Source: Macrostomum lignano (Eukaryota). Taken from it: a stretch of 41,760 bases of DNA. The stretch is from assembly GCA_002269645.1 (NCBI GenBank), contig NIVC01002834.1, positions 1 through 41,760 of the forward strand, read 5' to 3'. This document shows positions 8,012-36,894 of the stretch, one piece after another (position 1 is the first letter of the stretch; each line of letters opens with the position of its first letter). The position numbers and the translations under genes were made by a program. A model generated the notes under the pieces. The model was given only the letters and a program-made list of their open reading frames with translations. It ran no database searches and had not been told where the DNA came from.

Positions 8012-8811
<800 letters not shown>

Positions 8812-10378: not shown

Positions 10379-11088
10379 ATTGGGGAACCCTTGGCCCATA
10401 CGCACTTGAACTGCACACCAAGACTCTGATTTAAGCAACAATTCCCATTCAACACTACACAAGACGAAGGCCATTCCCAATAGAATGGACAGGCCCATTG
10501 GAATACAGGCCCGGCAGTGTGTAGCAATCAACAATTTTTACGATGTTCTCAATGCCTCCTGCAGGCGCTGATGTTGAGTCCCCGCAGACTCCTATAGAGC
10601 ACTCTCTACCGTCTTTATCTATCTGATGAAGAGGTCGCCCCCACCTGCGCGCCTCCTCAGCCTCATGAAAGTTTGATCAATCCTAGGGCAGACCAGTATA
10701 TGGCCTGTGTGAGCCTGAATTTTAAATCACAACAGGTGACCAAGCTTGAACAATTGCGCTGTCTCTTGGATGCTTATTCTCTCTCTCTGCCAGCTGCTGC
10801 GCCTCATCATCAGTTCTTCTCAATAGTATGGTCCCTCTGTCTCAGTCTTAGCTAAATAAACTCAGTCCGTTATAGAGTTGTATTAGGTTCTACTGTTGAA
10901 TTTGGTGCTCTGGCATTGTACAAGAGTTCTTTATTTTGTTCTCTAAAATAAAGGTTGATTGCTGCAGGCGTCCTTCGGCGCTATTGATGGGGCCACTGAT
11001 TTGGGTTGGCTGACCTCTTCTTCTTGGCGTTCTTTGTTGTCTAACCTGCTTTCCAGTGTATGGTACTCCTTCTTCTCGCACCCTTCTA

Positions 11089-11820
11089 AATGGCACTCTT
11101 AATGGCACTCCTAATGGCACTCCTCCTGGCACTCCTCCTGGCACTCCTCCTGGCACTCCTCCTGGCACTCCTCCTGGCACTCCTCCTGGCACTCCTAATG
11201 GCACTTCTCCTGGCACTCCTAATGGCACTTCTCCTGGCACTCCTCCTGGCACTCCTAATGGCACTTCTCCTGGCACTCCTAATGGCACTCCTAATGGCAC
11301 TCCTAATGGCACTCCTAATGGCACTACTCCTGGAACTACTAATGGCACTCCTAATGGCACTCCTCCTGGCACTCCTAATGGCACTTCTCCTGGCACTCCT
11401 AATGGCACTCCTAATGGCACTCCTAATGGCACTCCTAATGGCACTACTCCTGGAACTACTAATGGCACTCCTCCTGGCACTCCTCCTGGCACTCCTAATG
11501 GCACTCCTCCTGGCACTCCTAATGGCACTCCTAATGGCACTCCTCCTGACACTCCTAATGGCACTCCTAATGGCACTCCTCCTGGCACTCCTCCTGGCAC
11601 TCCTAATGGCACTTCTCCTGGCACTCCTAATGGCACTCCTAATGGCACTCCTAATGGCACTCCTAATGGCACTCCTAATGGCACTTCTAATGGCACTTCT
11701 AATGGCACTCCTCCTGGCACTCCTAATGGCACTCCTCCTGGCACTCCTAATGGCACTCCTCCTGGCACTCCTAATGGCACTCCTAATGGCACTCCTAATG
11801 GCACTCCTAATGGCACTGCT
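11089..11820. repeat. 12-bp minisatellite (aatggcactcct / cctggcactcct), ~61 copies
   Basis: Direct inspection; stop-free in several frames. Confidence 0.95.
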
Positions 11821-11962
11821 TACAGCAATGATCATTAATTTCGCAGACTCTAAAAAAATCGTTATTATAATAAATAAATATTAATAATTTCTAAATAATA
11901 ACGCTTCTGCTAAATAACTATAAGTTGATGATCATAGAAGCAAAAAACAGTGGTTCGAGTCA

Positions 11963-15184: not shown

Positions 15185-16143
15185 GTGAGCTGAGCGAATA
15201 TAATTGCGGTACTTTAATTAATTCAGTACGGTACTATAGAAAGTTTATAACCGCCTGTCTCGTCCCAGCAACACCGTCATCATTTTATAGTCTAATCTAA
15301 ACCTTAGCTTATAGATACTGTGGCCACGCGACCACCACTCTACAATCACTATTTATATTTGCCTAGCCAAACCCTTCACAATAGTCCGCTACGGGTGTGG
15401 TGGGAAGGGCCATAGACAGTCACTGATTGGATTGGGTCACTGCTGCCTGCAGACCGCAGAGGGGGAGACAGCTGACTCTAAAGCAGGGGGGCACCCGTTA
15501 CGGTTTGGCTTATAATAGTTAGGTCACAGGCCTCAAACTGTTGACCAGAGGGGGCACACTGGCCACTTGAGAATACCGGACGAGTCGGCACAGACGCAGG
15601 CGGTCGTGTGTGTGTGTGTGTGTGCGACTGTCTGTCTGTCCACCTTTTATAAATTTTTCAATCCGAAGACGCGCCGCGGACAAAAGCCGCCTTCATCCGC
15701 GCATACATTATTTGTGCGATTCTGAGCGTGTGTGTGGGGCAGGGTGTCAAAGCCTGGATATTCAATGCAGAGCGGCATAAAGTGGGGGCCGCGACAGGTG
15801 GCTGGGTTGCGAAATCTCAGCTATGGGGAGCAATTGGGTGGGAAGTGTAGGTGCGCTTGAGTCCATCTCCCATCTTAGCTCCAACACACGCGCAAGAGCA
15901 CCCATCTGTTGTCCGGGACCGTTGCCTCTAAGCATTAACCGACCGTGCAGGGACAATTTTAATCTAGGGAGAGAGGGACAGAAGATTCGCTCAAATCGCT
16001 GCACTTGAGCAGTAATTCGAGCGCGAACTTTGCTCTCTTCACGCACGACCTCGCGATCTATAGCGATGCTTGCGGAGTCTGCATTCTCTCTCAGCTAAAC
16101 TTCCTGATGCTCATGACTGCCCACCGTGCGCTGACCTTTGCAG

Positions 16144-17055
16144 AGTACCTGAAGCTGCTCCACAGTCAGCTGAGCCCGCCGACACCGCAGCAGCAGCAGC
16201 TGGGATCTCAGGCTCCCGCAGCTCTGCCGCTCGCAGCCGAACACCACAGGTCCTTCGACTTGGCAGACGAGGCCTCCTTGTCGATGTCGCTGCTGCCCGA
16301 GGACCTCAGCCTGAAGGACGCCAGCAGGGAGGTGCAGCAGCAGCAACGGCAGCGACTCAAGGCAGAGCCACCAGAGGAGGAGCTGCAGGACGCGGCTGAC
16401 TCGATGACAGCAGCAGCAGCAGTACCAGCAGCAGCGAACAGCGAACTTCTTGACGATGACTACATCGTTGACGATGTTGTAGACGACGATGGTGCATCGG
16501 CGATGGCTGATGACGGCATGAAGCTGGAGGTGACGGAGGAGCTGCAGCAGCTGCCGGACACCAGCGATGAGTCGCCACAGATGCAGCAGCCGCAGTCCAT
16601 CAAGACGACGCCAGTCAGGAAGTCACTGGGCAAGAACAGCGGCTTCCAGGATGGCGTGACAGTCGGGTACACCTTCGATGCATTCTTCGTCAGCGACGGC
16701 CGATCGCGGAAGCGCAACTCGGCGCTGCAGTCGGGCGCGTCGGCAGCCTCGGGCTCGGTTGTCGGCGATCCGACCGACTCCGCTGGCGCCGACGCCAAGT
16801 GTCGGACTCGGTACACCTGCAATGAGTGCGGCAAGGACTACGCCACCTCCAGCAACCTCAGCCGGCACAAACAGACCCACCGGAGCCTATACAGCCAGCT
16901 GGCCAAGAAGTGTCCGCACTGCAGCAAGACCTACGTGTCCATGCCGGCGCTGTCCATGCACATCCTGACGCACAGCTTGAAGCACAAATGCCACATCTGC
17001 GGCAAAGCATTCAGCCGGCCTTGGCTGCTCAACGGCCACCTCAGGGCGCATACAG
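16144..17055 (+). CDS. scrt: scratch exon 2: PEDLSLK motif, Scratch domain, C2H2 fingers 1-3
   Basis: Acceptor ctgacctttgcag| is phase-compatible with exon 1 (RRL-E-YLK). Scratch box GYTFDAFFVSDGRSRKR at 16665-16715. Fingers CNECGKDYATSSNLSRHKQTH, CPHCSKTYVSMPALSMHILTH, CHICGKAFSRPWLLNGHLRAH. Donor ACAG|gtgagt. Confidence 0.93.
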
Positions 17056-17079
17056 GTGAGTCAGATTTATCTATTTATT

Positions 17080-18467
17080 CACTCCTTCAGATGTCACTCC
17101 TTCAGATGTCACTCCTTCAGATGTCACTCCTTCAGATGTCACTCCTTCAGATGTCACTCCTTCAGATGTCACTCCTTCAGATGTCACTCCTTCAGATGTC
17201 ACTCCTTCAGATGTCACTCCTTCAGATGTCACTCCTTCAGATGTCACTCCTTCAGATGTCACTCCTTCAGATGTCACTCCTTCAGATGTCACTCCTTCAG
17301 ATGTCACTCCTTCAGATGTCACTCCTTCAGATGTCACTCCTTCAGATGTCACTCCTTCAGATGTCACTCCTTCAGATGTCACTCCTTCAGATGTCACTCC
17401 TTCAGATGTCACTCCTTCAGATGTCACTCCTTCAGATGTCACTCCTTCAGATGTCACTCCTTCAGATGTCACTCCTTCAGATGTCACTCCTTCAGATGTC
17501 ACTCCTTCAGATGTCACTCCTTCAGATGTCACTCCTTCAGATGTCACTCCTTCAGATGTCACTCCTTCAGATGTCACTCCTTCAGATGTCACTCCTTCAG
17601 ATGTCACTCCTTCAGATGTCACTCCTTCAGATGTCACTCCTTCAGATGTCACTCCTTCAGATGTCACTCCTTCAGATGTCACTCCTTCAGATGTCACTCC
17701 TTCAGATGTCACTCCTTCAGATGTCACTCCTTCAGATGTCACTCCTTCAGATGTCACTCCTTCAGATGTCACTCCTTCAGATGTCACTCCTTCAGATGTC
17801 ACTCCTTCAGATGTCACTCCTTCAGATGTCACTCCTTCAGATGTCACTCCTTCAGATGTCACTCCTTCAGATGTCACTCCTTCAGATGTCACTCCTTCAG
17901 ATGTCACTCCTTCAGATGTCACTCCTTCAGATGTCACTCCTTCAGATGTCACTCCTTCAGATGTCACTCCTTCAGATGTCACTCCTTCAGATGTCACTCC
18001 TTCAGATGTCACTCCTTCAGATGTCACTCCTTCAGATGTCACTCCTTCAGATGTCACTCCTTCAGATGTCACTCCTTCAGATGTCACTCCTTCAGATGTC
18101 ACTCCTTCAGATGTCACTCCTTCAGATGTCACTCCTTCAGATGTCACTCCTTCAGATGTCACTCCTTCAGATGTCACTCCTTCAGATGTCACTCCTTCAG
18201 ATGTCACTCCTTCAGATGTCACTCCTTCAGATGTCACTCCTTCAGATGTCACTCCTTCAGATGTCAATCCTTCAGATGTCACTCCTTCAGATGTCACTCC
18301 TTCAGATGTCACTCCTTCAGATGTCACTCCTTCAGATGTCACTCCTTCAGATGTCACTCCTTCAGATGTCACTCCTTCAGATGTCACTCCTTCAGATGTC
18401 ACTCCTTCAGATGTCACTCCTTCAGATGTCACTCCTTCAGATGTCACTCCTTCAGATGTCACTCCTT
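17080..18467. repeat. 15-bp satellite (cactccttcagatgt), 92 full copies, filling scratch intron 2 (17056-18497)
   Basis: Near-perfect array; the only variant I saw is c>a at 18267. Confidence 0.97.
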
Positions 18468-18497
18468 TCTAACCAGAGAATCGGAACCGTTCCGCAG

Positions 18498-18775
18498 GTG
18501 AAAAGCCGTTCGGCTGCGCTCACTGCGGCAAGGCGTTCGCAGACCGGTCGAACCTGCGCGCCCACATGCAGACTCACTCGGCCGAGAAGCAGTTCCGGTG
18601 CTCAAAGTGCGACAAGTCGTTCGCACTGAAGTCTTACCTGAACAAGCACCAGGAGTCGGCCTGCCAGACCTCTGCCGGTTCCATCTCAGCCGACGCCATG
18701 ATGGACGCGGACTCCAGGGCCGACTCAGCAGAGTGCATGACTCCATCAGCAGCTCAAGCCGACAACTCGCAATGA
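18498..18775 (+). CDS. scrt: scratch exon 3: C2H2 fingers 4-5 and stop
   Basis: Acceptor ttccgcag|GT restores TGEKPFGCAHCGKAFADRSNLRAHMQTHS...CSKCDKSFALKSYLNKHQESAC, the Scratch-type finger array. TGA at 18773-18775. Confidence 0.95.
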
Positions 18776-21022: not shown

Positions 21023-21270
21023 AGTAGTATATACGATACAAAATACCCAGCAAACCATTCTCACCATTGCAAACAATTTAACCCTTTATCAGTGTGAAAT
21101 GGCCTGTTTCCCTTCATTTTCGCTCGTCTTCACTTCGCTCAACTCGCTTCGCTCATCCTCGCTTCATTTCGGTCAAACAGGCCATTTCACACTTACAACG
21201 ATTAATTCTTTTTGAATGGTGAGAACACGCTCTCGTCGTTCGCTTTGGTTTGCTGGGTATTTTGTATCGT
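21023..21270. repeat. Left-terminal fold-back palindrome
   Basis: Perfect arms 21033-21056/21247-21270 (24 bp), 21058-21068/21215-21225 (11 bp), 21091-21109/21175-21193 (19 bp). Pyrimidine-rich loop with ttcgctc-type repeats. Confidence 0.9.
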
Positions 21271-21360
21271 CAACGCTTCCAACTCTCTCCAACACACACA
21301 AACTTTCTAGAACCCGTCGCACGCGCCGCAGGCGCTAAGGGTCTTTTTCTGTTACTAAAA

Positions 21361-21675
21361 ATGACCCGAGTTTACACCTTTTCTGTTAGTGATACTTTTG
21401 AGACTGTTGCTAAAAATGCAGAGATAATAAAACAACATATTTTGAATGGAATAATTGATGAAGTTTATTTAAAATATGACGACAAGCACGACCTAAAACT
21501 TTATCCATTAGAGCTAGATGAGATGTATGATTTAGAACAAGAGGGCGAGTTAATATTTCAACTTGGAGATTATTTAAATTCGGATGATTGGGAGGTTAGA
21601 TCAACAGATTCCGAATCAACAAATAGTTCATATGAAACCAGTGATTCAGAGAATGAAAGTGAAATTTTTATGTGA
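21361..21675 (+). CDS. Hypothetical viral protein, acidic C-terminus (~104 aa)
   Basis: ATG after taaaa; ORF track; no recognisable family. Confidence 0.65.
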   Translation: MTRVYTFSVSDTFETVAKNAEIIKQHILNGIIDEVYLKYDDKHDLKLYPLELDEMYDLEQEGELIFQLGDYLNSDDWEVRSTDSESTNSSYETSDSENESEIFM

Positions 21676-21691
21676 AAAAAATATTTAAAAA

Positions 21692-21916
21692 ATGAACTAT
21701 TATTCTATAACAGAAACGACATTTATTGTGAAAAATATATATAAAAAAATGAAGGTAAACTATTCCTACATCGGAAATGTGCCGATTAATGAACTTAATG
21801 AAAATTTAAGTTTGATAACAGTTGAACAAATGTCAATAATAATATTAGTAACAATTATAGTAATAATATTGTTTTTGTTTGTTATAAAAAATTTACTACC
21901 ATGTTGTCTCAAGTAA
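21692..21916 (+). CDS. Small single-pass membrane protein (74 aa)
   Basis: Hydrophobic stretch MSIIILVTIIVIILFLFVI followed by PCC; taaaaaATG start. Confidence 0.6.
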   Translation: MNYYSITETTFIVKNIYKKMKVNYSYIGNVPINELNENLSLITVEQMSIIILVTIIVIILFLFVIKNLLPCCLK

Positions 21917-21926
21917 TTGTTCGAAC

Positions 21927-23077
21927 TTAGTTCGCTGATATTAGTTGGTTCTCATAAAACGAACCCAATATTTCTTCACCGTCCTTATCAGCAATTATAT
22001 AGGTTGTAGGATTGGTATTTAAAACTTTACTGATAGTAAATTTCTCACTTATCTTCCAATATCCTTTTCTTCCTTTTTCAAACTTATCTTTCCATTTATA
22101 GATATAAACAGAATCACCAACTTTAAAATCTTTAGTTTTCTTTTTTTCAAATTTTCCAAAAGTAACCCTAACATTTTCAGGATTGTTATAAGCTTGTTGA
22201 GGAGTCATCTTTATAGCTGAATGATATGAATTGTTATAATCTTTCACTACGTCTGGTAATATTTTTACCCATTTTTGGTTACCATTAAGACTAAACTGAA
22301 ACCATAATTTCTTACCTAAAGTTCTATTAAATCTTTCTATTAATGCGTTTTTACTCTCTCCATAAATAGAATAAATTTTATTAATATACTCCCCATTCGC
22401 GTCCTTTTTCCTTTCTTGTCCTTTTTCAAAATGATATAATTTATACATATGAGGATTGTAAAATTCTTTTCCTTCGTCAACACACAAACGTTCGCTTTTT
22501 TCTCCAAGACTTCTAAAAGCAGCAGCAACATCCTCTCCTTTTTTGGATTTCAAAGGAACAGCCCACGCGTATCGAGTAAAACCATCTAATATGGTTAAGA
22601 TATATTTATATCCTCTTTCGTTCGGCATAGACATTAAATCAGCATACCAAATTTCGTTCTTTTTGAAGTTCATGATTTTTCTATAAAATTTAGGTTTTCG
22701 ATATTCTTTATGAAGAATCTTTGCCTCATCAGAACTTAACCCACCGCCACTTAACAACAAACACTCAACACAATTATTTCCATGTTGATTATAATTAATT
22801 CCCAAACCAAATTTAACTTTAGACTGCAAAATCTTTTTAACCATCCACCTAGTTAATCTCTGACCTACTGATAATCCCTGCAAGTTATCTAATCCTTGAA
22901 TCATTTTTTGATCGGCTTCATGTTTTAATCTTAATGCTTCCTCGGGTGAGTTCTTATCAGCATCTCTGTATGCTAAGTCATGATAGTATGCTAACCAATC
23001 AATACCGTTAATGGGAATTGAATCGGCTTTTGGAGTATTATCAGGATTTAATCGGAGATCGAGTCGAGTCAACCCGG
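21927..23077 (-). CDS. Exon 2 of PLA2X-integrase gene: PLA2 catalytic helix plus retroviral-type (rve) DDE integrase
   Basis: PINGIDWLAYYHDLAY (parvovirus-type PLA2 HD), KVKFGLG, then WYADL / CVDEGKEF / IERFNRT DDE triad and Polinton-type C-terminus FKVGDSV...GSFYENQL. One base appears missing just after the splice junction. Confidence 0.9.
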
Positions 23078-23403
23078 CCTTTATACCTTTGCTTTCACAA
23101 AGGAGTAGACTGTGTCTTAAGCTATCATAAGGATTGACTAAGTCCTTCAAGCCCACCAGCGTACAGTCGTTGCATCTCAACCATACTCAAGTCATATGAG
23201 GTTAGGTTTTCGATTCACTCTTGCCCATATATTTATCTTCAAGCTTGTTACCGTTGGGAAGAGGAGTTACCTCTGTTCCTTTGTAATCTTTCGAAAACAA
23301 AGTGGTACTTGAAGCTTTAGGGGATTGAGTGAGCGGCTGGTGTTGCCACTAATAGTGACTAGCAGTAGCTTTGCATCTACCACTCGGGCACAGCTCGAGC
23401 TCC
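23078..23403 (-). ncRNA. Group I self-splicing intron, IC1-like, 326 nt, no internal ORF
   Basis: P1 exon CGGGU with IGS GCCCG (U.G at the splice site). P3 CACCAGC/GCUGGUG. P4 UCACUC/GAGUGA. P5a CUUCAAG/CUUGAAG. P5b CUUUGU/ACAAAG with GAAA loop. P6 AUC/GAU. P7 ACGACUG/CAGUCU within AAGACACAGUCU. P9.0 CU/AG. P9 CCUUUGU-GAAA-GCAAAGG. Terminal G at 23078. Excision restores YNFAG|PG. Confidence 0.9.
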
Positions 23404-23529
23404 ACCCGCGAAGTTGTAAGATGGGATGTGTAATTCATTTGTATACCTTCCAGTAGTAAAGATTGGTGGTAAGCTTGTTAATCCTTTTTGAACATCTAAC
23501 AATCCTCCTTCAAACACTATTTGGCTCAT
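23404..23529 (-). CDS. Exon 1 of PLA2X-integrase gene (42 codons, ends ELHIPSYNFAG)
   Basis: taaaaATG at 23529. ELHIPSYNFAG matches the start of the viral PLA2 Ca-binding loop (cf. LPGYxYLGPG). Confidence 0.88.
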
Positions 23530-24127
23530 TTTTAATAGCCTTAAAAATACATGAAAGCACCAATTGTTTTGCAAATTCTTCTATGGTTGGTTGTTTATCA
23601 TTTTTTGAAATATTATCTACAGCAACTAAGTATCTTTTATTTCTCCAATTTTCAGACTTTTTAATTTGTTCTTCATCGCGATAATCAAAAGATGAAGCAG
23701 GAATAAAATGGTCAACATGCAAAACACCAATATAATCTTTTGGCACATAATAATGTTTTGTGAAATTTAACCAATCAGTAAAGAATTCAATTGAGCAACC
23801 AAGGTAATCAACAGTATGATTATTTTTTCGAGCATTATTAGATTTTAGAAGAGAATATATTCTATTTCGTGTGTTTAAAATAAGTTTGTAATTTTCATCA
23901 GTTAATCTTCTTTCATTTTGATATTTTCTGCGCCTTTCTATATTATTTTTATCATATTCTTTTTTCCATTGAAGCTTATATTCACGATTTTTCTCATACC
24001 ATTCTTTATCATACTTTCTCTCACAAGGTTTGCAAATACTATAATATCTATTTTGATCTCTACGAAATCTAAAATAATCCAAAATTTTCTCTTCTTTACA
24101 TTTATTACAAATTTTTGTTTCATCCAT
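23510..24127 (-). CDS. Free-standing HNH endonuclease with N-terminal CxxC/CxxC module
   Basis: CNKC...CKPC, charged helical linker, YLGCS, and LHVDHFIPASSF...WRN...DNISKNDK. Resembles HNH nucleases common in large DNA viruses (from memory of the motif). Confidence 0.82.
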   Translation of the reverse strand: MDETKICNKCKEEKILDYFRFRRDQNRYYSICKPCERKYDKEWYEKNREYKLQWKKEYDKNNIERRRKYQNERRLTDENYKLILNTRNRIYSLLKSNNARKNNHTVDYLGCSIEFFTDWLNFTKHYYVPKDYIGVLHVDHFIPASSFDYRDEEQIKKSENWRNKRYLVAVDNISKNDKQPTIEEFAKQLVLSCIFKAIKNEPNSV

Positions 24128-24155
24128 TTTATAAAAAAATAAATTTAACAATTAA

Positions 24156-24821
24156 TTAAACACCAGTATGTCCAGCAGCTTTCGCAGCAGCTAAAACAAG
24201 TTTTCGTGGTGTTTTAAATCCATCACCAACAGCTAGTTTGTTATTTATAGAATTAACAATCCTTTTATACAAGCTGGTATTTTTAACAGCTCCTCCTAAC
24301 TCATCATAAAAAATTCTAGCACTTATTAATTCATCCCTAGTATATAAATCAGGGTTAAATTTTACCCTAGGGTTCATAACAATATTATATGCTCCACCCA
24401 ATTCTCTATATAGTTCATTTCGATTTTTATCAACTCCACCAATTCGATAATTATTATTACCTAAATCTGTCGCAGCAATACTAGCTGGTACTCTTGGATA
24501 TTGTTCCCGATCGCCCCGCTCTGCACGTCTAATCTCTGCAATTCTCAATTGTGCTTGATCAACATCATAAGCAGGCGGCTCATCTAAAAGTTCATCCTCT
24601 TTTGGCTCAGTATTTTTAGCAATTTTTTCCAGAAGATCTTTATCTGTTTTTTCTAGTTCACTAATTTTCCCAGTAATAGGATTAACAAAAGGAGCAGCAA
24701 ATCTTTCACCCGCTAATTGTATTCCTAACTTTCTTTTTTGTAAATTTCTAACAAAATCAGAATATCTTTGCTTCTCTTTATAAATCGCTAACTCTCCATC
24801 AACGTCCATAAATTGACTCAT
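24156..24821 (-). CDS. Hypothetical viral protein (221 aa), possibly a protease-processed core protein
   Basis: taaaaaATG start; C-terminal AVGDG|F resembles an adenain site; function inferred. Confidence 0.7.
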   Translation of the reverse strand: MSQFMDVDGELAIYKEKQRYSDFVRNLQKRKLGIQLAGERFAAPFVNPITGKISELEKTDKDLLEKIAKNTEPKEDELLDEPPAYDVDQAQLRIAEIRRAERGDREQYPRVPASIAATDLGNNNYRIGGVDKNRNELYRELGGAYNIVMNPRVKFNPDLYTRDELISARIFYDELGGAVKNTSLYKRIVNSINNKLAVGDGFKTPRKLVLAAAKAAGHTGV

Positions 24822-24855
24822 TTTTTAACATAAAAAACTTTTTTAACTTAAAAAA

Positions 24856-26326
24856 ATGGCTGAAACAAAAACTATGTGGAGTGATAAATTTCATTTCAAA
24901 AAGCACCGACAGTATATTAATGAGGTCAGAGCAAAAGATTTAAATTATACCCTACCAACAAGTGATAATTCAAATAACTTTACTACTGGAACGGTAACTT
25001 TTGACATCGGCGCAACCAACACTATATTGGATATGAAAAATGCGTTTTTCCGCGTTAGATGGTTGTATACTAGAAATGATGGAACTGCTCTTGCAGCCGG
25101 AGATATCGCAGATCGATCCGGAATAATAATAGAAAATGATTGGTTTTATAAATGTTTTTCCCAAGCTCAACTAACTGTTAATGGTGCTGAGGTTGAGACA
25201 TCATCAAACCCCGCAGAGATTAATGGAGTTTTGAAACATTTAAATTATACTTATTTATCAAAACAAGTTGGTGCTAATGTTGGGTGGATGCCGGATAAAG
25301 GTAACGGTCAAGCAGTAGTTTTACCTAATGTACAAAACGCAGCCGGTGCAGATACTGCAGCGCTAATTGTTTACCTTAATACAAACATAGTTCCAGTTGT
25401 AACCACTATGACTAATACAAAAGATATTAATACTGGTTTTATAGATCGTCAGAATAAATTCCCAGTCGCGGTTTTAACCACAGCAACAGCATATGAGCAG
25501 GACTTTTCAATCTTTCCACTATTTGGGTTTTTCTCACCAAATCGGGTATGGAAAGGATTAAAATTTGGGATACAGTTGCAAATATCTGGTGGATATCAGC
25601 CTAGGATACTTTATGGAACCTCAATTTCAACCGATATAGCAGTTCGTATAGATTCAATTCAATTAGTCGTACCAACTATTGAGGTAACAGCCCGCTTTTA
25701 AAACACATCGATAATCAGTTAACGCATGATCAGGAAATATTTTATTTGAATCGTAGACACTTTATGCGAACCATTAATAACAATCAGGATTCATTCCAGT
25801 GGCAAATACTGACATCAAAACGTCGGGTGAGATATATTTTTGTTTGGTTTAAGATAACAAATAGAAGGAGTAAAAGAGCAAATGGGGATTTATATTGGCT
25901 TCAATCGGGTGACATAGCAGCACAAGCAGCTACCGCAACAGACAACGCAGTTGCTGCAATTAACGAGTTTAATGTTCAGAATATCCGCCTGCAGGTTGAT
26001 GATCAATATTATCCGGTTAAAGATCCTCTTAATCTAAATATTGCAAATAATAATGTTAATGATTTTATAAAATATTATCAAGATTATGCCAAAAATGAAG
26101 CGTATGCCGTCCCTCAGTACACACCCACAGAGTTTCTAAACATTCATCCAGTGGTTGTTTATGATCTAACGGCACAGAAAGAAAACGTAGCCAATATTGG
26201 ACTTAATTATATGTTAGAGATTAATAAAACGGTAATCAGGCACTTGACGCCCACGTATTGTTTCTAGAGGAATATATGTCAATTGCTAAAGCTGATGGCA
26301 CGATTGTTCGGGACGCGCCGCTGTAA
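24856..26326 (+). CDS. Major capsid protein (double jelly-roll), broken by two -1 frameshifts (~25695, ~26230)
   Basis: FSQAQLTVNGAEVETSSNP, VRYIFVWF, IRLQVDDQYYP...LNIANN, HPVVVYDLTAQKE match Polinton MCP motifs. Frames rejoin as ...PLLKHIDNQL... and ...GNQALDAHVLFLEEY...DAPL*. Confidence 0.8.
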
Positions 26327-26377
26327 AATGAGTGCAGGTCTCCGACCGTCGCGCCTATTTAAATTATTTCTTTAAAA

Positions 26378-27172
26378 ATGGTAAAGGCAAAACACGATAA
26401 GATATTTCCAAATGATCCTTTTCTTTGTTTAGTAATCGGAGGATCAGGTAAAGGAAAAACACACTTTGTTTACGATTTATTAACAACAGATGGAATGTTA
26501 GACTATAATAATTTAATAATTTATACTAATAAACCTAGAATAAAATATTATGAATTTCTTAAACATGGATTAAAAAACAAATTAAAAAAAGATGTCTTGT
26601 TTAGAATGTTAAGAGCATATGAGCAATATGAGGATGATGACGAACCGCGATTTAATCTAGCAGACATTGAGGATTTATGTAAAACAATGGCACAACAGCC
26701 AGAAAACATCACCGATCGCCCCGAAGGGTCGCGGACTTCGTCCGATCGCGCCCCAACTGTTAGAGTATCAACCCGATTAGCCTATGATCAAATTCCAAAA
26801 CATGATAAAACACTAATTATTTTTGATGATTGTATTAATGACGGTGATCAAGAATTACAAAAGGAAATTTTTGTTAGTGGTAGAGGAGATGGAATTGGAG
26901 CTTTTTATCTTACTCAATCCTTTAGAGAATTAGAATCGATTATAAAAAAGAATGCTAGCTGTTGTGTAATGTTTGATTTAGATAACTATGATCTACAAAA
27001 TATTCACGCTAGATTTAATCCCGGATTGGATGCAAAACCATTTAAAAGTATGTGTAAAAAAATTTGGGATGATAGCCAATACAAACATATTTATATCAAT
27101 CCGAGGTTAGAAAGGAAACATAGAATTTTAACAAATTTGATAAAAGAAGATAATGAGGAAGAAGAGACATAG
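26378..27172 (+). CDS. A32/FtsK-like DNA packaging ATPase
   Basis: Walker A GGSGKGKT, Walker B LIIFDD, SGRG and LTQS motifs. Confidence 0.92.
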   Translation: MVKAKHDKIFPNDPFLCLVIGGSGKGKTHFVYDLLTTDGMLDYNNLIIYTNKPRIKYYEFLKHGLKNKLKKDVLFRMLRAYEQYEDDDEPRFNLADIEDLCKTMAQQPENITDRPEGSRTSSDRAPTVRVSTRLAYDQIPKHDKTLIIFDDCINDGDQELQKEIFVSGRGDGIGAFYLTQSFRELESIIKKNASCCVMFDLDNYDLQNIHARFNPGLDAKPFKSMCKKIWDDSQYKHIYINPRLERKHRILTNLIKEDNEEEET

Positions 27173-27211
27173 CACGCGTACCTTCGGTACGATTAATTTC
27201 CCACTATAAAA

Positions 27212-27991
27212 ATGACTACAAATTTAAATACTATAAAACAATTGGTAGATCGAACTAATTCAAAATTTAGTACAACATTACAGTTTATAATGACAACCAG
27301 CGAGCAACGGATTCAATTGCGCGATCCATTACAACTTGATCAAAGCCTAAGTTATCAAATAGGTTTAATTCTATTTTCGGTTTTCAACATGCCTCAATTA
27401 ATTAATGCAACAAATAATCAATTTAGATATTCTAAAGATTCCGGAGCCAATTGGACAACATTTAGCGTTAACCCAGGAGCGTATAGCTATACTGATTTGA
27501 ATGCTTATATAGAAGGAGAATTAACAACTAATGGTGATTGGGTAGCAGGAGCAATTGTTATAGGTGTTGATTTACCGTCTGGCAGATTCACACTATCACT
27601 AGGATCCGGATATCAGGTTGATTTCACAATTGCAAATTCACTCAGAACCATACTTGGATTTAATTCCCGAATAGTTACCACATCAAGCACCGGTGATACA
27701 GTTGGAAATATAGAGGGTGGAGTAAATACAATTAATATAACAACCGACATTTCAAACGGTGGTTATATAACAGAATAACGGAGTTTTGGTTCAACGTGGA
27801 ATTATTTATTCAATCCCATTTCTTGCTGTTCCAATTGGAGAGAAAATGATTGTTGCACCCAAACCCCAATATATTATCCTTTAAATCAATATGTTCAATC
27901 AATTTATATTAGGATTGTAGATGAAAGCGATAGATTAATAAGTTTTGGTGGGCAGTCAATAACAATAATTTTACGTATAAAACAGGTTTAA
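27212..27991 (+). CDS. Minor capsid (penton) protein, two frameshifts near 27775 and 27868
   Basis: YQIGL..FSVFN...INATNNQFRY, PGAYSYTDLN, and C-terminal IYYPL...IRIVDESDRLISFGGQSITIILRIK after frame correction. Confidence 0.78.
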
Positions 27992-28004
27992 TCCTATAGT
28001 AAAA

Positions 28005-28187
28005 ATGGGTAATAATAATAATAATAATTTAATAAAAAAACAATCAGAAAAAGTTAAAAAAGCTGAAGATAATTACGAACTAGAACTAGCAAAATTAAGG
28101 CAGTTACAAGCTGATAAAATAAGAAAGGAATTGTTAAAACCCACACCTACGAAACTAACTAAAACCAAGAGTTTTTCAGGAACATAA
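28005..28187 (+). CDS. Small basic protein (60 aa) with N-terminal MG
   Basis: gtaaaaATG start; fills the gap between penton and protease. Confidence 0.55.
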   Translation: MGNNNNNNLIKKQSEKVKKAEDNYELELAKLRQLQADKIRKELLKPTPTKLTKTKSFSGT

Positions 28188-28188
28188 A

Positions 28189-28623
28189 ATGACCATGACG
28201 TGGGATGATTTTAAACAAAGATATGGAACGGACACAACAAGCAATATCGAATTAACAAATTGGGCGAGGCAGTTAAAAATAAAACCATTCAGATGTGTTA
28301 TGCGAGATGAGATCAAAGACTTACCACAATATGGATCTTACATTGTTAATATTGAAACAACAAAAGAAAATGGTGTTCATTGGTCAGCAGTTTATTCAAA
28401 ACCAAAACTTGTTTATTTTTTTGATTCATACGCGCTTCCTCCGTTACAGGAAATAAAAGACAAATTTAATCATACTAAAAATCGTTTATGTGGAGATCAT
28501 CACGAACAATTTCAAACATTTGATAAAAGTTATTGCGGGCAAGCGGCGTTGTATTTTTTATATCGACTTTCGAATGAAGCTCGTGTAAACCCCGAAGATC
28601 ATTTGCCGATGGCACGATTTTAG
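28189..28623 (+). CDS. Adenain/Ulp1-like cysteine protease
   Basis: Catalytic order GVHW, FFDSY, QFQ, YCG (His-Asp-Gln-Cys). Confidence 0.9.
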   Translation: MTMTWDDFKQRYGTDTTSNIELTNWARQLKIKPFRCVMRDEIKDLPQYGSYIVNIETTKENGVHWSAVYSKPKLVYFFDSYALPPLQEIKDKFNHTKNRLCGDHHEQFQTFDKSYCGQAALYFLYRLSNEARVNPEDHLPMARF

Positions 28624-28647
28624 ACTCTATAAAATAGACAGTAAAAA

Positions 28648-30630
28648 ATGTTATTTTCTGGAACACCCTCATGGAACGGAACAACAAGTAGTGGTGGTGG
28701 TGGCACATCTGGTGGAATAAGTGTTACATTTGGAGATAATCGATATATTAATGAAGATGAAGGTTATAAAAAAAGTGAAGTTGATACTAAACTAAATTTA
28801 AAAAGAAATGTTGCAGATTCCTATACCAAAACTCAAATAGATGATTCACTAAATCTGAAACGGAACGTAGCCGATTCCTATACCAAAACCGAAGTTGATA
28901 ATTCATTAAATTTAAAACGCAATACAGCCGATTCTTATACCAAAACAGAGGTTGATAATTCATTAAATTTAAAACGCAATACAGCCGATTCTTATACCAA
29001 AACCGAAGTTGATAATTCATTAAATTTGAAACGGAACGTAGCCGATTCTTATACCAAAACCGAAGTTGATAATGGATTAAATTTAAAAAGAGATGTAACT
29101 GATTCTTATTCTCGAACTGATTCTGATTCACGTTATGTTCAAACCACCGCAACCGGAAACCTAGATATGAGCAACAACCGAATTATAAATGTTTCAATTA
29201 CAACTAGTGATTCAGTGGTTGATAAGAACTATGTCGATAATCAAGTTGCCACTCGTAGTGGTAATATTAATATGAATAATTTTAAATTAACAAATTTATT
29301 ATTTGGAACAGATAACGCAGACTCGATAACTCTAGGCCAAGTAAACGAGCGAGCTAATGCAACCGACGCCGATATTTTTACCACGCCGCTTACATCAAAT
29401 ACTTCAAATCCTGATGTTGTTCTTACAGCATCTGAAAATGGCAACACAGCTTTTCGAGTTGGAGATGGAAGCCTTGCGACACAATGGTCACCAAATACCG
29501 GAACCACAACCAATATGGAAATTCAATTTGAATTTTTAGGTTATAATAGAAGAATATTTGAATTAAGAATTACAGGCAGTGAAACAATTGAGATACCCTC
29601 GGGTGGTCGGTTCGCGCAAAAAATGTTGCTACCGATTCATGGACGACATTAACTACGTCGGGATCACCAGTTCAAGCAACATCATTTGCTCTATCTAATT
29701 TAACGACTAATTTTTGGAAATATTATAGCGTATTCTTCCCAACTGGTGGTACCGGTACACAACCTATCGAGGTTCGTCAAATACAATTATTTGAACACCG
29801 TGTTGAAATTCAAGATCTTAATTGGCCAACTCAAATACTTTCTGCAGTTCCGCGAGCGTACGTAGATCAGCTAGCTACTCCAACATCAAATGGTAGAATG
29901 TCTGGAAGCGATAAAAATAAATTGGATGGAATACCTGCTATTGATGCGGCCTTGTTCGAACCAGTAATTTGCAATTGGTCTGGATATCAAAATCCAACAA
30001 CCGCCGGAGATATATATCCAGTCGGTTCTTTAATTGGTGACGCTTCTTATATCGATTATCAAAACGGCGCTAGAATTACTCGTGAAACTTCTGGAGTAAG
30101 TGGTGCTTTACAATTCAATTTCACACATTTTCAAAATATATCTGCGTCTTTCTTTTTCCGAGTTGCTAATGCTACAGGAGATGGTGCAGATGCGGTTTGG
30201 TTTTATGCATACTGTCACCAACGTCCAACATCGGAATTTGGATCTGGATTATCAACCGACGCCGGATTGATAGTTTTTGCTAGTGAGTGGCATGATAAAT
30301 TTGGACTTTGGAGTTAAAAAAAATCAGACGGATCAAGCGCGCGATGTTAATACTGACGCGGATCAAACTGTAGCCTATGCAAATATTGATAAATCGAATT
30401 CATACATACAATGTTGCTGGTGATTCTTATACCCTCATTGGCAGAACGTTTTCACATATGATAGTGGAACTTGGGGAACTTTGATAAATCTGGAACCTTA
30501 TGGGTTTTGGTGCTCGAACTGGAGGATCGGATGCTGCACATTTTATTCGTGGCGCAGTTTGTGGTAGTACGTCGTTTGGTTATGTTTTTCCTCTACTGCT
30601 TATTTGGAAAAACCTCCTACTCAAATATAA
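28648..30630 (+). CDS. Fiber/spike-like protein with 20-aa repeats and putative carbohydrate-binding modules; several frameshifts
   Basis: About 5 copies of KTEVDNSLNLKRNxADSYT (60-bp DNA repeat, ~28770-29110). NLDMSNNRIINV / NINMNNFKLTNL. GRMSGSDKNKLDGI. GDGADAVWF...GFGARTGG..H.I (L-lectin-like). Fragments 28648-29652, 29898-30317, 30500-30630. Confidence 0.7.
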
Positions 30631-30646
30631 AATATTTCTATATAAA

Positions 30647-30973
30647 ATGGCTTTTAGTAGAACTCCATCGATGCGGCAAAATAATGTTATTATTCCTATT
30701 CCTAAACAAGAATCAAATATAAAAACATTCAAATCTCATACCAAATTTTTATTTAGTACTGTAAATGTTCAGGATAATAAGAAGCTTCAAGAATTAATTA
30801 AGTTATTAAAAAATCATATTATACTTCAAGAGTTTTGGAAAATAGGATTTAAATGGGAGAAAAAAGAAAGAATAACTCCAATACAATACCTATTAAGCTC
30901 CGGGCAAATCCCCAAAGAGCGTGGGGAATTCATTTTGGTGCTATTAAAAATAGACGAGAATGTCGGTATCTGA
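30647..30973 (+). CDS. Hypothetical viral protein (~108 aa)
   Basis: taaaATG at 30647 within track ORF 30500..30973. Confidence 0.6.
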   Translation: MAFSRTPSMRQNNVIIPIPKQESNIKTFKSHTKFLFSTVNVQDNKKLQELIKLLKNHIILQEFWKIGFKWEKKERITPIQYLLSSGQIPKERGEFILVLLKIDENVGI

Positions 30974-31614
30974 AGCAGATAAATGGGAACGCGACCGGTT
31001 CAACCAACGTAAAGGTCAGATGTTAAGTAATGTTGATCGTATTAACTATGATTATGATTTATATGCTAAAAAAGTAAGAAGAGTTTCAAACCATATAAGA
31101 AATATGGACTTTTTCAATATTGGATTTGGAAGCTTATCAATGTTATGTGTAATCGTTTTAGGTATTTTACAATCTATTCCAACTCTTAATTTATCTCAAT
31201 TATTTTTAGGTATTTCAATTGGCTCAATATCAGGTTTTGAATTGATCAGGAACTTATCAATACTTTTAGCAATTAAATTATATCTTAAAAAAAGAAAGGA
31301 AAAATATAAATCTTTAAGAGATGTTGCAACAATATAAAAATCAATTATATTTATATGTGCAAAAAATATTGGATGACGGAGAGATAACGATTCATGAATT
31401 ATCAACCGCGGTTGAATTATATGAAAAATATTTAAAAGATAGAAATAGAATTTTAGATGTTGAAACTTTTACCGATATGGAATTAAAAGAGTTGAGACTC
31501 GATAAACCCAAAGCTCCACCGATAGAAACATTAGGCATTTACGAACCTGAAACTATTGCTACTGGGGCACAAAGCCCGCGGTCAGGAAGTGCTGTAGAAC
31601 TTCAGGTTGTTTAG
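30960..31614 (+). CDS. Two-TM membrane protein of a type common in Polintons (one frameshift ~31330)
   Basis: Basic run, two hydrophobic helices, KK-rich segment, then KILDDGEITIHEL...YEKY. ORFs 30960..31337 and 31321..31614 overlap. Confidence 0.62.
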
Positions 31615-32094
31615 TTTTTCTAATGCATATGTTATATATTCTTCCCAAAGTGGTAACTCTCTTCTGATCCTAGGTTTAAATTTTTTATCAATACATAAAA
31701 ATTCCAATGACTTTTTCAATAACATTTCGTTAGGTATGTTACCTATCCTTATAAACTTTGTATTCTCTCGAATAAGAAAATTGAAATAATATCCAACTAA
31801 AATTAAAATCCTTTCGGAGTCTTTCGAACTTAATCCCTTTCCTTTATTTAAATGGAAAAAGTTATTATATAAATAAACATTATTTCCGGGAATTAAAATT
31901 GGATCAGAAATGTCTCTTGTAAGATTTCTTAAAATTGTGTTTTTAAAATAGTAATATGAGTTTTCAATCTTTTTTGTTTTTTCAAATTGATATATTTTAG
32001 AACATGAATAACACATATGATATATATCTCCGTTTGCTGTTTGCCCTCTGTGCATAGTCACATTACATTTATTACAAACATAAATGTCTTTCAT
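31582..32094 (-). CDS. Hypothetical protein with N-terminal zinc ribbon (170 aa)
   Basis: CNKC-x17-CYSC; aaaaaATG start. Confidence 0.65.
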   Translation of the reverse strand: MKDIYVCNKCNVTMHRGQTANGDIYHMCYSCSKIYQFEKTKKIENSYYYFKNTILRNLTRDISDPILIPGNNVYLYNNFFHLNKGKGLSSKDSERILILVGYYFNFLIRENTKFIRIGNIPNEMLLKKSLEFLCIDKKFKPRIRRELPLWEEYITYALEKLNNLKFYSTS

Positions 32095-32120
32095 TTTTTT
32101 GTTATTTTTTTAGATTAAAA

Positions 32121-32453
32121 ATGGAGAGCTGGTTCAAAACCGATTCTAATGTGATTAATTATCTCACACCCAATATGTTGGAGAATAAAGAATATAATAT
32201 TGTATGTTTGAGACAGGTTAAATTTATTGGGCTTCAATCAATATTTTTACAATTAGATGGGCAAAAAATTTTATGTCTAAGCGGAGATGATGTTAAAAAT
32301 TTTCCTGTTTTAGTTATTAATAAACCTAAAGCGTTTGTTATGAAATACTGCAACGAGGGTGGATTGCAATTTAAACTAAAACAAACAAATAATAAAAAGA
32401 GTGATAGGACTGTAAAATTGGCGGCTGTTTGGGAGGATGACGACGAAGACTAA
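32121..32453 (+). CDS. Hypothetical viral protein (110 aa), acidic tail WEDDDED
   Basis: taaaaATG start; ORF track. Confidence 0.65.
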   Translation: MESWFKTDSNVINYLTPNMLENKEYNIVCLRQVKFIGLQSIFLQLDGQKILCLSGDDVKNFPVLVINKPKAFVMKYCNEGGLQFKLKQTNNKKSDRTVKLAAVWEDDDED

Positions 32454-32468
32454 ATTTTTTATAAGAAA

Positions 32469-32927
32469 ATGGATACGATAAAAATCCTTATCACTAAAGA
32501 GCGTGAACTTAATGATATTAATAAAAAAATAAATATAATTATATCTCAGAAATATCATGAGTATGGGGACGATATGTTTCCCATCCGATATGAGATAGAT
32601 AAAAGAAAACGTTTTTTAAGACAAGATATTGTTTATGCTGAAATAGTAATTGAAATTGAAATAGATAGATTGGTTAGAAAAATAAAAAAACTTAGGAAAA
32701 AAATAAAGGATTGTTTAAGTTACCCTGACGACTGCGAGGAAAATTGGCCTTCAATATTATATGAAATCGAAATGGATATTATGCTTAAACAATTACATGC
32801 TTTAGTTTTTTTCCGCCCGAAGGGTCGCGGATTTTATCCGATAAGTAATTTTTCTGTTAATCTCTTCCAGTTATTCAAGACTTTTTCCTTATTTAATTTT
32901 TTAAGTTCTTTTGGAAATGTTGAATAA
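32469..32927 (+). CDS. Hypothetical basic/coiled-coil protein; 3' end overlaps pPolB tail antisense
   Basis: ORF track; true end may be earlier (hairpin element at 32813-32840). Confidence 0.5.
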   Translation: MDTIKILITKERELNDINKKINIIISQKYHEYGDDMFPIRYEIDKRKRFLRQDIVYAEIVIEIEIDRLVRKIKKLRKKIKDCLSYPDDCEENWPSILYEIEMDIMLKQLHALVFFRPKGRGFYPISNFSVNLFQLFKTFSLFNFLSSFGNVE

Positions 32928-35900
32928 TAATTATCTATATCTTTTTCATATTCTAGAAATGTATTATATTCACAATCACATTCGGATTCACAATCACAAT
33001 CGTAATAATAATTATTTATTGCCGCTTTGTATTCATTATATTTACTTATTATATCTTCTTTTTGTTTTTTATCTTTTATCATATTTTTTATCTCTTCTTT
33101 TAAACCATATGGATATGTTTTAATTTTATCATCTAAATATCTTTTATCATCAAATGGACTTAATGTTTTTTTATCTGTCTCGATGACAAACATCTGATGC
33201 TTATCTGAATTTAATCGATATTGTGGAGCATGATAATTTTCAATTGTATTAAGGTAATCTAAAAGTACGTTTTTATAATCATCAAATGTTATCTTTTTTA
33301 CTGCTGCTCTTGATACCCCTTTTATTTTTTTTACCTCTCCCTCCTGTCCTAAAACCTTAAATGCATAGCATTTTGATCTTATTGCTATAAACTCGGTTAT
33401 GATTTTGCTATTTAATTCATCTTTCATTTTAAGTACAACTTTTTTATTTTGATCTGATTTTAAAGGATGGTTATCCGGATAGTCGGATGTGTCCAATGTA
33501 TCCTTAATTTTTTCCATATCTTTATAGACATCGAACCTTTGGTTCGCGGCTGCCCGATCTCTGTTTCAACCTTAAATACCAAACTGTCGGTGTCTGCATA
33601 TATTGGATAGTTATCTGGCCATGTTTTATTTATAACATCATAATAATATTCATACATTACCAGCTTTGCATAATCTAAAACAACCATTCCAATAAATATT
33701 GGTTTAAGAAATTTTGTTGTTTTATTTCTCATATGAATACCCATAAAGTTATCATCAAATTTTATAAAGTCTTTAAAGTTAGGTTTTGAGAAATATTTCT
33801 TTGCTTTATCAATATCCTTTTCTAAATGGAATTGGGTTCTATCTCTAATATTTTCAACCGTTTTTCCATAAAAAGCATTATTCATTAATTTCCAATAATC
33901 TTTCTCAAAATTTGTTTTTGACATCTGTCTCTGATTTGAATTAAAGTCAATATATTTAGCTAACCAATCTTCCTCAATAAACGATATTGTTCGATGTACT
34001 TTAGACACTTTTAATCCCTGCTTTTCATAAAATTGTAGAAGCTTATAATGCACTACATAGTTTTTCTTATCATGTAAATTTAATATTAATTTTTTTGTTG
34101 CTAGATGTTTTGCATTATCTACTTTAAGATAATCTTTTTGTGTTTGTGATAAATCATCTTCATTAACTGAACAATGCTCTGGAGCTAAAGGATATTTATA
34201 TGTTTTTGCTTTTGCTTCCCGAGTATATTGCAAATCCACCTCTACAATACAGCCCCTTCCTTCGGGAATATTTTTGTAATAATCGGGGTCATCTTCCCAT
34301 TGGAAATCAGCTATTGGTAATTTTTGTTTCATACAACCACCGTATAAATTGTTTGCATCTAGATATAATACATATGATGATTTTTCTTTTTTATTATAAT
34401 TTGGTAGATATTTATTATTTACTTTAGTATATCTATCTCCTAGTACACCCGAGAATCCGCCGCGAATTCCTCTCTCAATCATTAACAACATATCATGATC
34501 AGTTAGTAAATCAATCTTAACATCTGTATGTTTCAAACCACAAGCCCATGTTAATCCCGGTGCACTGAAACAATATGCGGGATCAATTTTAAAATTCTCA
34601 TATGTATGATTCCTAAAGTTTTCAAATGCATCAGCTAATAGGAGAACATCTGCTTTAAGATATAGATTATGATAATCTTTAAATGTTTTACAATTAAAGT
34701 ATTTCCATACTTTTTGAGCGTGTTCATAATCCGATTCACTTATGTTTGTTTGTGATAATGTTGAATAAAACTTTTCAATTGGGGGTAATTCGGTATGAAA
34801 AAATACGTCTTCAGATGTTACATATTCATATGGGTAGATGCCCTTACGAGTTAATAGCATTAGTTCTTCCTCGGATAGTTTTTCCTTTTTGAAACGATTC
34901 AATAGTATTGGAAAGTTTTTCTTTACTATTTCTAAATCCCATGGTTTTGGAACTAATGATGAAACAACATTTGCTAAAGATGTTGATAAGAATCTCAAGG
35001 AATCTAGAAAAACTAGATGGGAGTATTTCTTACCATATGTTATTGATATGTAATTTTCTGATGTTTTAGGTAATATATTTATTTCATATTCATCCTTTCC
35101 TAAATGAAGCAATTCTCGAACTAAGAAATGAAAATCATATCCGGAACCATTATGAAAAAATACTGGTATTTCCTTACATCCTTTTCCTTCTTTTGCATTA
35201 CATGATCTACATGCTGCCCCTCGATAATTTCCGTTAGATGACAATGTTCTCGTATCTTATTTTTCTTACTTAAATATCTTTTGCACATAAAACAATTTGT
35301 TGCATTTTTATAATTGTCTCTATCCTTATTTGTCATATTAATATTTTTTGATAATTTATCATATTGATTTTGAATATATTCAAATACATTTACTAATGAT
35401 TCTGCCATGTGCTTAGCTGCATCATTACCGTGGTAAGTAATCATCCTTGATTTAAATATATGATCAGCTACGGAGTGTACATATATACAATAACTATTCG
35501 GAAACTGTTGTGCAATTTTTTTGTGCATTCACCGTCCCGTAGGGTCGCATGCTTTGCATGACCGTCATCAGATGCCGTCTGTGATTCTTTTAAGGGAACA
35601 TTTGTTGCTTCAAAATCAGCATATATTACTATTGGTTTTTTAACTGCCATATAATGTTGTTGGAACTTTAGGGTTGCATCTTCAGATGCTGGCATTATAG
35701 CATTAGTAAATTTGTGATCTAAACAAAATCGTTGGTGGTTTTTAAGAGCTGTTTCATCCTTTTTAAATGTAAAACAATTTCTACATAGTGGATATCTATT
35801 TCTATTTTCTCTTAAAAAAGAACTAATATCTTTTATGTATATATAATGTGTTTCATTTTCGCGCTGCATGTACAAAAGATCGATTTGATCTGGTGCTGTT

Positions 35901-36568
35901 ATATCAGTTGCTGGCTTAACAAGATAACACCTTTTCTTATACCATTCTGGATCGACCTGCTGAATTTCTTCTAGATCTTTGGTTCTTCAATTGTAAAACA
36001 TTAATATTTAAACCATTCATTTTTTCAATCTTATATATATCATCTATTGCTACTGGGTATGATATGTTTTTCATTATTATTTCATCCTCATATTGTCTAT
36101 AATTATATATTTTATTAATGTGTGATTCTACTTGATTGTGATATTTATGAATTAATAAACACCATAATAAACATTTATTATCTTTATTGTCTGGATTTAT
36201 AATCATAGGTGATTTAAATTTGAGCTTCATATGTGATCGTCCTTTAAGAATTTCTATAGGTGCAATCTTTACTATTGCTGAATTACAGATACAAATATAA
36301 ACCCAGATCCGTTTTCTGTCATCTTATCTATCCATTCATCAAACTCAGCTTCTATTTGATCGAATTGATTGTTGTAATTTCCCATTGATAATAATGTTTT
36401 ATATGATTCTTGTGAAAAGTTATTTATTACTTCAATTTCTGAATTTGCATTAAGAATATTTGGTTTTTTAAATTCTGTTTCAACTTCTATTTTATACTTA
36501 ATTGGCTGTCGTTTGTTATTTGGCCTTATAGTATAATTGTTTAATATAGTCTTTAATTTATCTTTCAT
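32834..36568 (-). CDS. polB: Protein-primed family B DNA polymerase (pPolB) with EndoVII-like insertion; split by about 5 frameshifts
   Basis: Exo IYADFE, FHNGSGYDFHF, YLKADVLLLAD. Pol YLDANNLYG, KLMNNAFYGK, YADTDS, IRSKCY, KKIKGV, PFDDKRY. N-terminal GSGFIF...IINPDNKDNKCLLWC. Confidence 0.95.
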
Positions 36569-36618
36569 TTGTTTAAAATATTCTTTATAATTTGTATTTA
36601 TATCTATATCTATATATA

Positions 36619-36810: not shown

Positions 36811-36894
36811 TTTATAGAATAAAATTTATATAATGTTTGAATTATTGATTTTTTAATTTTGCGTTTTTGGTGTCTTGACCCACCCCCCAGGAGC

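Follow-up and report, generated by a model that had tools for sequence, protein, structure and literature searches.

Within the 41,760-nucleotide stretch of Macrostomum lignano DNA analysed here (contig NIVC01002834.1, hereafter the window), a 326-nt insert on the minus strand (23403-23078) interrupts a protein-coding gene of a Polinton lodged in the chromosomes of the animal, and we have hardly any doubt that this insert is a real group I intron. An intron of this class in a protein gene of an animal-nuclear virus-like element is unusual; group I introns of nuclear DNA are described as limited to the rRNA genes of microbial eukaryotes (PMC3679873). The sequence-only reading had already described the insert as a group I intron within a protein gene of a Polinton that is integrated in a chromosome, and both the pairing of the ribozyme core and the existence of empty alleles bear this out. 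The three intron types, the nuclease and the likely loss of its target that we describe below constitute a larger system, which lay beyond the view of that reading. Our full-text literature search, which covered few subscription papers, returned no report of group I introns in animal Polintons. The earlier statement that no description was known thus holds for animals, but RF00028 introns have been published from Polinton-like viruses of the protists Paulinella, Desmodesmus and Rhodomonas (PMC12220804), and a nematode Polinton study, in its accessible sections, refers to introns solely when considering where an HNH domain may have come from (bioRxiv 2023.08.22.554363).

The insert folds into the helices expected of a group I ribozyme. 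P1 forms between the exon sequence GCGGGU and the internal guide sequence (23389-23385), with a U.G pair where the 5' splice site lies, and the guide covaries with exon base -4 between intron type A, to which the window copy belongs, and types B and C. P2/P2.1 are present; P3 pairs 23342-23336 with 23160-23154, P4 pairs 23332-23327 with 23220-23215, and P7 pairs 23170-23164 with 23112-23107, such that P7 with its guanosine-binding G-C pair, the 3' strand of P3 and P8 together occupy 23170-23107. The P5abc extension (23314-23237) has an A-rich bulge, a GAAA L5b and a GUAA L5c, and 63-69 of its 82 bases are common to the other intron types. P9 is also found. The helices named in the sequence-only reading (P1, P2/P2.1, P3, P4, P5abc, P7 and P9) were therefore confirmed where it had put them. 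At the 3' end, G23078 makes two P9.0 pairs in a shifted register, as in related giant-virus introns; this register is common to six of the eight related introns listed, one of them with identical letters. Judged by this P9.0 covariation with six related introns, G23078 is the predicted homologous terminal G, in agreement with the earlier assignment of omega-G to this base.

Statistical support comes from several directions. The covariance-model check proposed earlier yields a match to the whole RF00028 model (E 1.4e-9, 701 bases searched), but its score, 42.9 bits, lies under the cut-off of 50 bits, and a scan of the whole window at the Rfam gathering score returned no match. The siblings are stronger, with 58-91 bits, and types B and C as well as a metagenome copy exceed the cut-off. 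An Rfam E-value scan of the 18-kb stretch missed the known intron and is thus silent on further introns in the element. The minimum free energy has a z-score of -2.5, equalled by 1 of 100 shuffles. In an alignment of 20 hand-chosen sequences from four intron types, in which P4 of type A was moved by hand by one column, pairing is kept in 675 of 680 cells of P3, P4, P5a, P5b, P6 and P7, and the guanosine-binding G-C pair is present in 18 of the 20 rows. Out of 34 pairs, 14-15 have both partners changed between type A and each other type, and the 22 core pairs of P3/P4/P6/P7 are all in register, as opposed to 5-10 of 22 after sliding by one or two columns.

Subgroup IC1 is marked by P2, P2.1, P5abc with an A-rich bulge and a GAAA loop, and a receptor in P6a/b, and it has a characteristic J3/4-P4-P6 sequence. 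All these peripheral features are found in the window intron, the P6a/b receptor as a variant, so that the label IC1-like fits the periphery. It does not fit the core: J3/4 of type A is 3 bases long and its P4/P6 is recoded, and type A lacks the IC1-type J3/4-P4-P6 sequence that its siblings, type C and the metagenome locus L091, retain.

The element that hosts the intron is a Polinton/Maverick of about 18 kb (21024-38979) with AGTAGT...ACTACT ends. The Polinton hallmark genes found are an rve integrase, which is part of the interrupted gene, a protein-primed-type family B DNA polymerase (32834-36568, minus strand, in several pieces here; an Atlas lead with a score of 0.95, with PF03175 on 24-39% of members), an A32-type packaging ATPase (26378-27172, plus strand) and a double-jelly-roll major capsid protein (24856-26267, plus strand, in two pieces here; an Atlas lead with a score of 0.97). 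A candidate cysteine protease (28189-28623) gave no useful family match, and a PDB sequence search with the PLA2X protein and with the polymerase likewise gave none. Nearly all ORFs of the element, and of the second subfamily too, start in an AAAATG context, possibly a viral initiator signal. The left terminal repeat (21024-21345, plus strand) is internally palindromic and unlike the right one (38673-38979, plus strand), which belongs to another variant of the family; both repeats are long internal palindromes (21033-21270 and 38713-38979). Two other copies have one right flank in common, which, with the mixed ends, hints at recombination or mis-assembly.

It is extremely improbable that the element stems from contaminating protist or giant-virus DNA, or that the insert is ordinary sequence. 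Its nearest outside relatives are indeed environmental and giant-virus contigs, and the window copy, with its unlike repeats, has no target duplication; yet a 6-bp target duplication is found at three of the eight full-length sister copies tested, more than 100 copies (sister-copy candidates partly scored) lie on contigs of up to at least 860 kb, the stretch is present in 20 sequencing runs from 8 studies of one organism, and the empty alleles prove insertion. The element is moreover flanked by a host C2H2 zinc-finger gene (16107-17066, plus strand) that we take to be of the Snail/Scratch family; to our knowledge, genes of this type are restricted to animals. In 16107-18629 and 6905-11884, the zinc-finger gene is broken by a 15-base tandem repeat, and several further tandem arrays produce spurious long ORFs.

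The interrupted gene encodes a PLA2X-integrase fusion on the minus strand. Exon 1 (23404-23529) encodes 42 aa ending in YNFAG, and its last base is the U of the P1 U.G pair. The insertion point lies in the PLA2 GPG motif, where the intron parts the Gly codon from the Pro codon; the intron is followed by the Pro-Gly codons (23077-23072), in which the five guide-pairing bases recur, then by two extra bases (23071-23070), and finally by exon 2 (21927-23069), which starts with TRLDLRL and holds the remaining PLA2 domain (HDxxY) fused to the rve integrase, with an in-frame ATG at 22904 in an AAAAATG context. The Pro-Gly codons and TRLDLRL are in different frames. The 326-nt insert reported earlier is real, but the ellipsis that it placed between PG and TRLDLRL conceals this change of frame, and the proposed exon junction fails to restore the frame: ligation at G23078 in a single round gives Pro-Gly followed by a stop codon. 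The two extra bases are absent from intron-less, type B and type C alleles, and intron removal restores the frame for types B and C, but not for the type in the window. A sequencing or assembly error is rejected as their origin, since every one of the 24 type A copies has them, as do contigs from each of the four runs examined. Spliceosomal removal was also discarded, there being no suitable GT-AG pair that restores the frame. Among 150 PLA2X relatives, Gly is kept in 147 and Pro in 136, and none has an indel in the PLA2 loop at the splice site. PLA2X has been described in adintoviruses, in the accessible text without mention of an intron (PMC8502044). The gene calls of two PLA2X relatives (P0086 and P0120) start precisely at Pro-Gly, which may point to introns at this site in other elements.

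Three intron types occupy this one Gly|Pro site in the genome. Type A is found at 24 places (25 of 25 candidates scored); one of these introns (L025, G000:C249) has an insertion of about 830 bases with inverted ends in P8. Type B has the 5' site and periphery of type A with a different core, scores 58-66 bits in three loci, and carries a terminal A in place of G at 16 of 19 loci (L024, L026, L028-L030 and L065-L078), with P9.0 intact; the remaining three end in G. Group I introns with a terminal A are rare, with precedents in Coxiella and coral mitochondria. Type C belongs to a second subfamily, where 28 of 29,353 candidates were scored; all 28 loci reach 72-91 bits, and the ends are canonical at each junction in 27 of the 28. 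Empty alleles, for which a search had been suggested earlier, are present in the same genome, and the segment is hence an insertion: they make up 6 of 20 stretches, chosen non-randomly by open-frame length, and one has an intact 424-aa ORF. In the window's subfamily, 133 of 136 exon pairs have an insert of 303-1167 bases and three have none; pairing used 137 of 150 exon-1 rows, leaving out 11 of the second subfamily and 2 without an exon-2 row, and the counts of intron-bearing copies may contain haplotype duplicates.

The type A cassette sits on several exon haplotypes that are also seen with type B or empty. Exon letters specific to type A are limited to base -4 and to 23066-23054, a pattern that a cassette spread through conversion and retained by P1 and P10 would leave. 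Nine of the ten bases at the 5' end of the intron (23403-23394) are complementary to exon positions 23063-23054, forming a long P10-like anchor. The idea that type A is native to a site six bases downstream is weakened, as P9.0 supports G23078 and none of the 25 candidates has that arrangement. Exon 2 changes among type A copies are mostly synonymous.

The type C intron also contains a gene. Its ORF begins in the P2.1 loop, reaches at least 200 aa in 15 of the 28 introns and matches Pfam RE_Eco47II over the cut-off. The structural model of its product (pLDDT 91.7) matches EcoO109I (TM 0.64-0.69) and AvaII; DdmD came top by E-value in the structure search, with a low TM. We identify the ORF as a PD-(D/E)XK nuclease gene of the Eco47II/EcoO109I/AvaII group. 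Eco47II recognises GGNCC. The sites of AvaII and EcoO109I are G^GWCC and RG^GNCCY, respectively (PMC7337904). A free-standing version, 66% identical to that of type C, lies directly upstream of exon 1 in some type A and type B copies, in the slot where the window copy has a free-standing HNH/endonuclease VII-like ORF (23510-24127, minus strand). This HNH-like ORF is unsupported as the driver of the window intron, for empty alleles carry it too. The free-standing nuclease was found in 36 paired copies, all of which have the intron, but the association is non-significant (Fisher p 0.57) with only three empty alleles in the table; the contigs of four verified empty alleles of the second subfamily were not among the contigs listed with the nuclease. 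Fifteen environmental nucleases (P0003-P0017) are 45-64% identical, and the C-termini of many run on into the same ribozyme core, which implies that more intron-borne copies exist.

GGNCC is depleted in the element. The window element has none in 17,956 bases against 11.2 expected under a Markov model, the lowest of 32 palindromes (the minimum in 200 shuffles is 8), and no Gly-Pro in 4686 residues against 7.5 expected, whereas the host flanks have 36 GGNCC against 35.8 expected. A type C stretch of 8190 bases is likewise free of GGNCC, against 4.8 expected. In an intron-less stretch of 9001 bases the single GGNCC is the insertion point, and the same is true of six shorter, partly overlapping empty stretches. 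Every possible coding of Gly-Pro contains GGNCC, and PLA2 depends on these two residues, which would prevent loss of the site at the insertion point. Two further motifs are scarce in the window element, namely CANTG (28 against 55.6 expected) and CCNGG (7 against 18.5 expected, though not low in two other elements); they may reflect another nuclease. GGNCC is not depleted in 79 metagenome loci. Ten viral contigs with distant nuclease relatives (L171-L180, 4 of 10 labelled as giant-virus bins) have 38 GGNCC against 79.7 expected.

Based on the above data, we propose that this animal Polinton family probably carries a nuclease-intron system that combines homing with immunity by way of GGNCC. The relationship to EcoO109I and AvaII, together with the GGNCC counts, leads us to infer that the nuclease cuts GGNCC. 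The family would have shed every GGNCC that could be shed; the intron would split the last one in the DNA, and splicing would rejoin it in the RNA. Empty alleles would be cut and then repaired from intron-bearing copies, a form of homing that would be collaborative where the nuclease is free-standing, while rival empty elements would be destroyed. The window copy, which has no nuclease, would be an immune passenger. GGNCC is as frequent in host DNA as expected, and the nuclease would therefore have to work apart from the host's chromatin or in a cell that is already lost; this weaker part of the proposal suggests a cytoplasmic, giant-virus-associated phase. Both intron and nuclease have giant-virus relatives.

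Several observations weigh against this scheme. Splicing and cleavage are both deduced from sequence, the link between nuclease and intron falls short of significance, and the low CCNGG count in the window element implies that further pressures are at work. Cutting at a five-base site would be toxic to the host's DNA, and the recognition sites of known PD-(D/E)XK homing enzymes are about 23 bp long (PMC3384342); the element-wide loss of GGNCC nevertheless points to a short recognition site. The contigs of four of the 24 runs listed, whose RNA nature is guessed, contained no joint skipping the intron among the matches listed; one run contig ends exactly at a type B 5' site, as an empty allele would also explain. 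The window copy scores under the Rfam cut-off and is frame-broken after one round, and most type B loci have a terminal A, which together mean that splicing may be poor in the window's subfamily. Taken to its limit, the introns could be fossils of a protist- or giant-virus-associated phase that do not splice in the animal and are kept as a block of the nuclease site or as hitch-hikers. The broken frame of all 24 type A copies, the A that ends 16 of the 19 type B loci, the missing spliced contig and the ATG at 22904, which could give integrase without splicing, are compatible with such fossils. We nonetheless consider fossils improbable, as diverged haplotypes retain complete core pairing, P1 and the exon covary, type C ends are canonical at each junction in 27 of 28 loci and the exon 2 changes of type A copies are mostly synonymous.

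The fate of the RNA from the window's own intron type can be described in four ways. A single round to G23078 would leave a message whose frame is broken; PLA2X would then come in trans, and integrase might be made from ATG 22904. We adopt this tentatively, at a little under an even chance. That the window's type is not spliced at all seems quite improbable. One round to a neighbouring G (23070, 23073 or 23079), each of which preserves the frame, would give integrase with an altered, probably inactive PLA2 loop. With 23073, pairs form at 7 of the P10 positions among the first 9, and 23070 combines the anchor with two Watson-Crick pairs at the site; but P9.0 covariation favours G23078, the loop spacing is invariant in 150 relatives, and this outcome is distinctly unlikely. 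The last possibility is removal in two rounds, with ligation at G23078 followed by excision of 23071-23070, yielding the junction of the intron-less alleles. After the first ligation, the message would stay bound through the long 5' anchor, P1 would slide six bases onto the Pro-Gly repeat, and the 3' G of the intron would attack; the two extra bases would leave and G23070 would become the new terminal G, a natural excision-splicing. The repeat of the five guide-pairing bases in the Pro-Gly codons favours this course, as do the extra bases themselves, which come after a U and end in G. The tail of the second round would pair with all three post-P7 bases in the register of types B and C, the type A-specific exon letters stop exactly at the last anchor pair, and the fixed length of the loop in the 150 relatives makes two rounds the only route to a normal PLA2. 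In vitro, such a reaction has been described for segments down to one base and depends on the 3' G, P10 and P9.0 (PMC2532722). Against it, the anchor is modest, since 1734 of 20,000 random synonymous codings pair equally well, and supporting reads are absent from the contigs of the four runs, whose RNA nature is guessed. The two bases are also the last two of type B and C introns and may be the relic of a second tandem intron; tandem introns with short exons occur in giant-virus relatives, and a relic needs no function. Free GTP inhibits the in vitro reaction (PMC2532722), and DNA-level immunity could spread a defective cassette. We regard two rounds as unlikely, if by no means far-fetched. 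To have more than 100 working introns in an animal nucleus, kept by a restriction-type five-base nuclease whose one surviving target they cover, and natural two-round excision-splicing all hold jointly is doubtful.

Relatives of the intron exist outside this genome. The unrelated metagenome element L091 (Ga0224502_10072777, 90-916) has the same gene, site and intron (80.6 bits) with an embedded nuclease; its protein is 39% identical to the Polinton family here, and it is the one such case in 80 metagenome loci. A motif scan of viral contigs gave nine stretches on eight contigs; seven contigs resemble the Polinton introns, two of them confirmed by Rfam. The introns of the giant-virus-type contigs (L197-L202, L204 and L205) lie in ubiquitin and VLTF3 genes, and some are tandem, with exons of about 18-20 bases between them. 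Ten IMG/VR PLA2 loci gave no intron match in an Rfam scan that also missed five intron-bearing loci, and a single-protein scan of viral contigs for the nuclease gave none in 31 stretches.

These features place the system among known ones. Protist Polinton-like viruses likewise have RF00028 introns (309-376 bases) in small integrating dsDNA viruses, near the capsid gene and, in the excerpts available, with no nuclease assigned (PMC12220804); here the host is an animal, the gene is PLA2X-integrase, and there are three types and a nuclease. Bodo saltans virus also has introns in viral protein genes, with nuclease-bearing parents, nuclease-less offspring and a proposed interference between viruses, but its nucleases are HNH and GIY-YIG and it is not integrated in the host nucleus (PMC5871332). 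Nuclear group I introns share the IC1-type periphery, the nuclear DNA and a nuclease in a peripheral loop, though in rRNA genes of microbial eukaryotes instead of an animal protein gene (PMC3679873). I-Ssp6803I is similarly a PD-(D/E)XK enzyme of restriction-enzyme fold within a group I intron; it reads about 23 bp (PMC3384342), whereas the putative site here has five bases and would be unique through loss elsewhere in the element. Phage collaborative homing pairs a free-standing nuclease with a target-protecting intron (PMC11296320), and in phage intron-nuclease interference the intron shields the nuclease target (PMC11620839); both concern bacteriophages and HNH-type enzymes, as opposed to a Polinton and an Eco47II-like nuclease, and here free-standing and embedded nuclease states are found within one genome. 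Trans excision-splicing offers a chemistry able to remove the two extra bases, but as a non-native, engineered reaction (PMC2532722).

This Polinton family thus puts group I introns into a protein gene in animal chromosomes, where their splicing in animal cells becomes testable. Empty, free-standing-nuclease and embedded-nuclease states, the proposed steps in the birth of mobile introns, coexist in it. The family also suggests another route to homing specificity, in which a short-site nuclease is combined with loss of the site from the element, and gives a hint of contact between animal Polintons and giant viruses, with a possible cytoplasmic phase. The odd 3' ends, with two extra bases or a terminal A, are natural tests of 3' splice-site choice, and removal of the two bases in a second round would, if true, be the first natural excision-splicing by a group I ribozyme.
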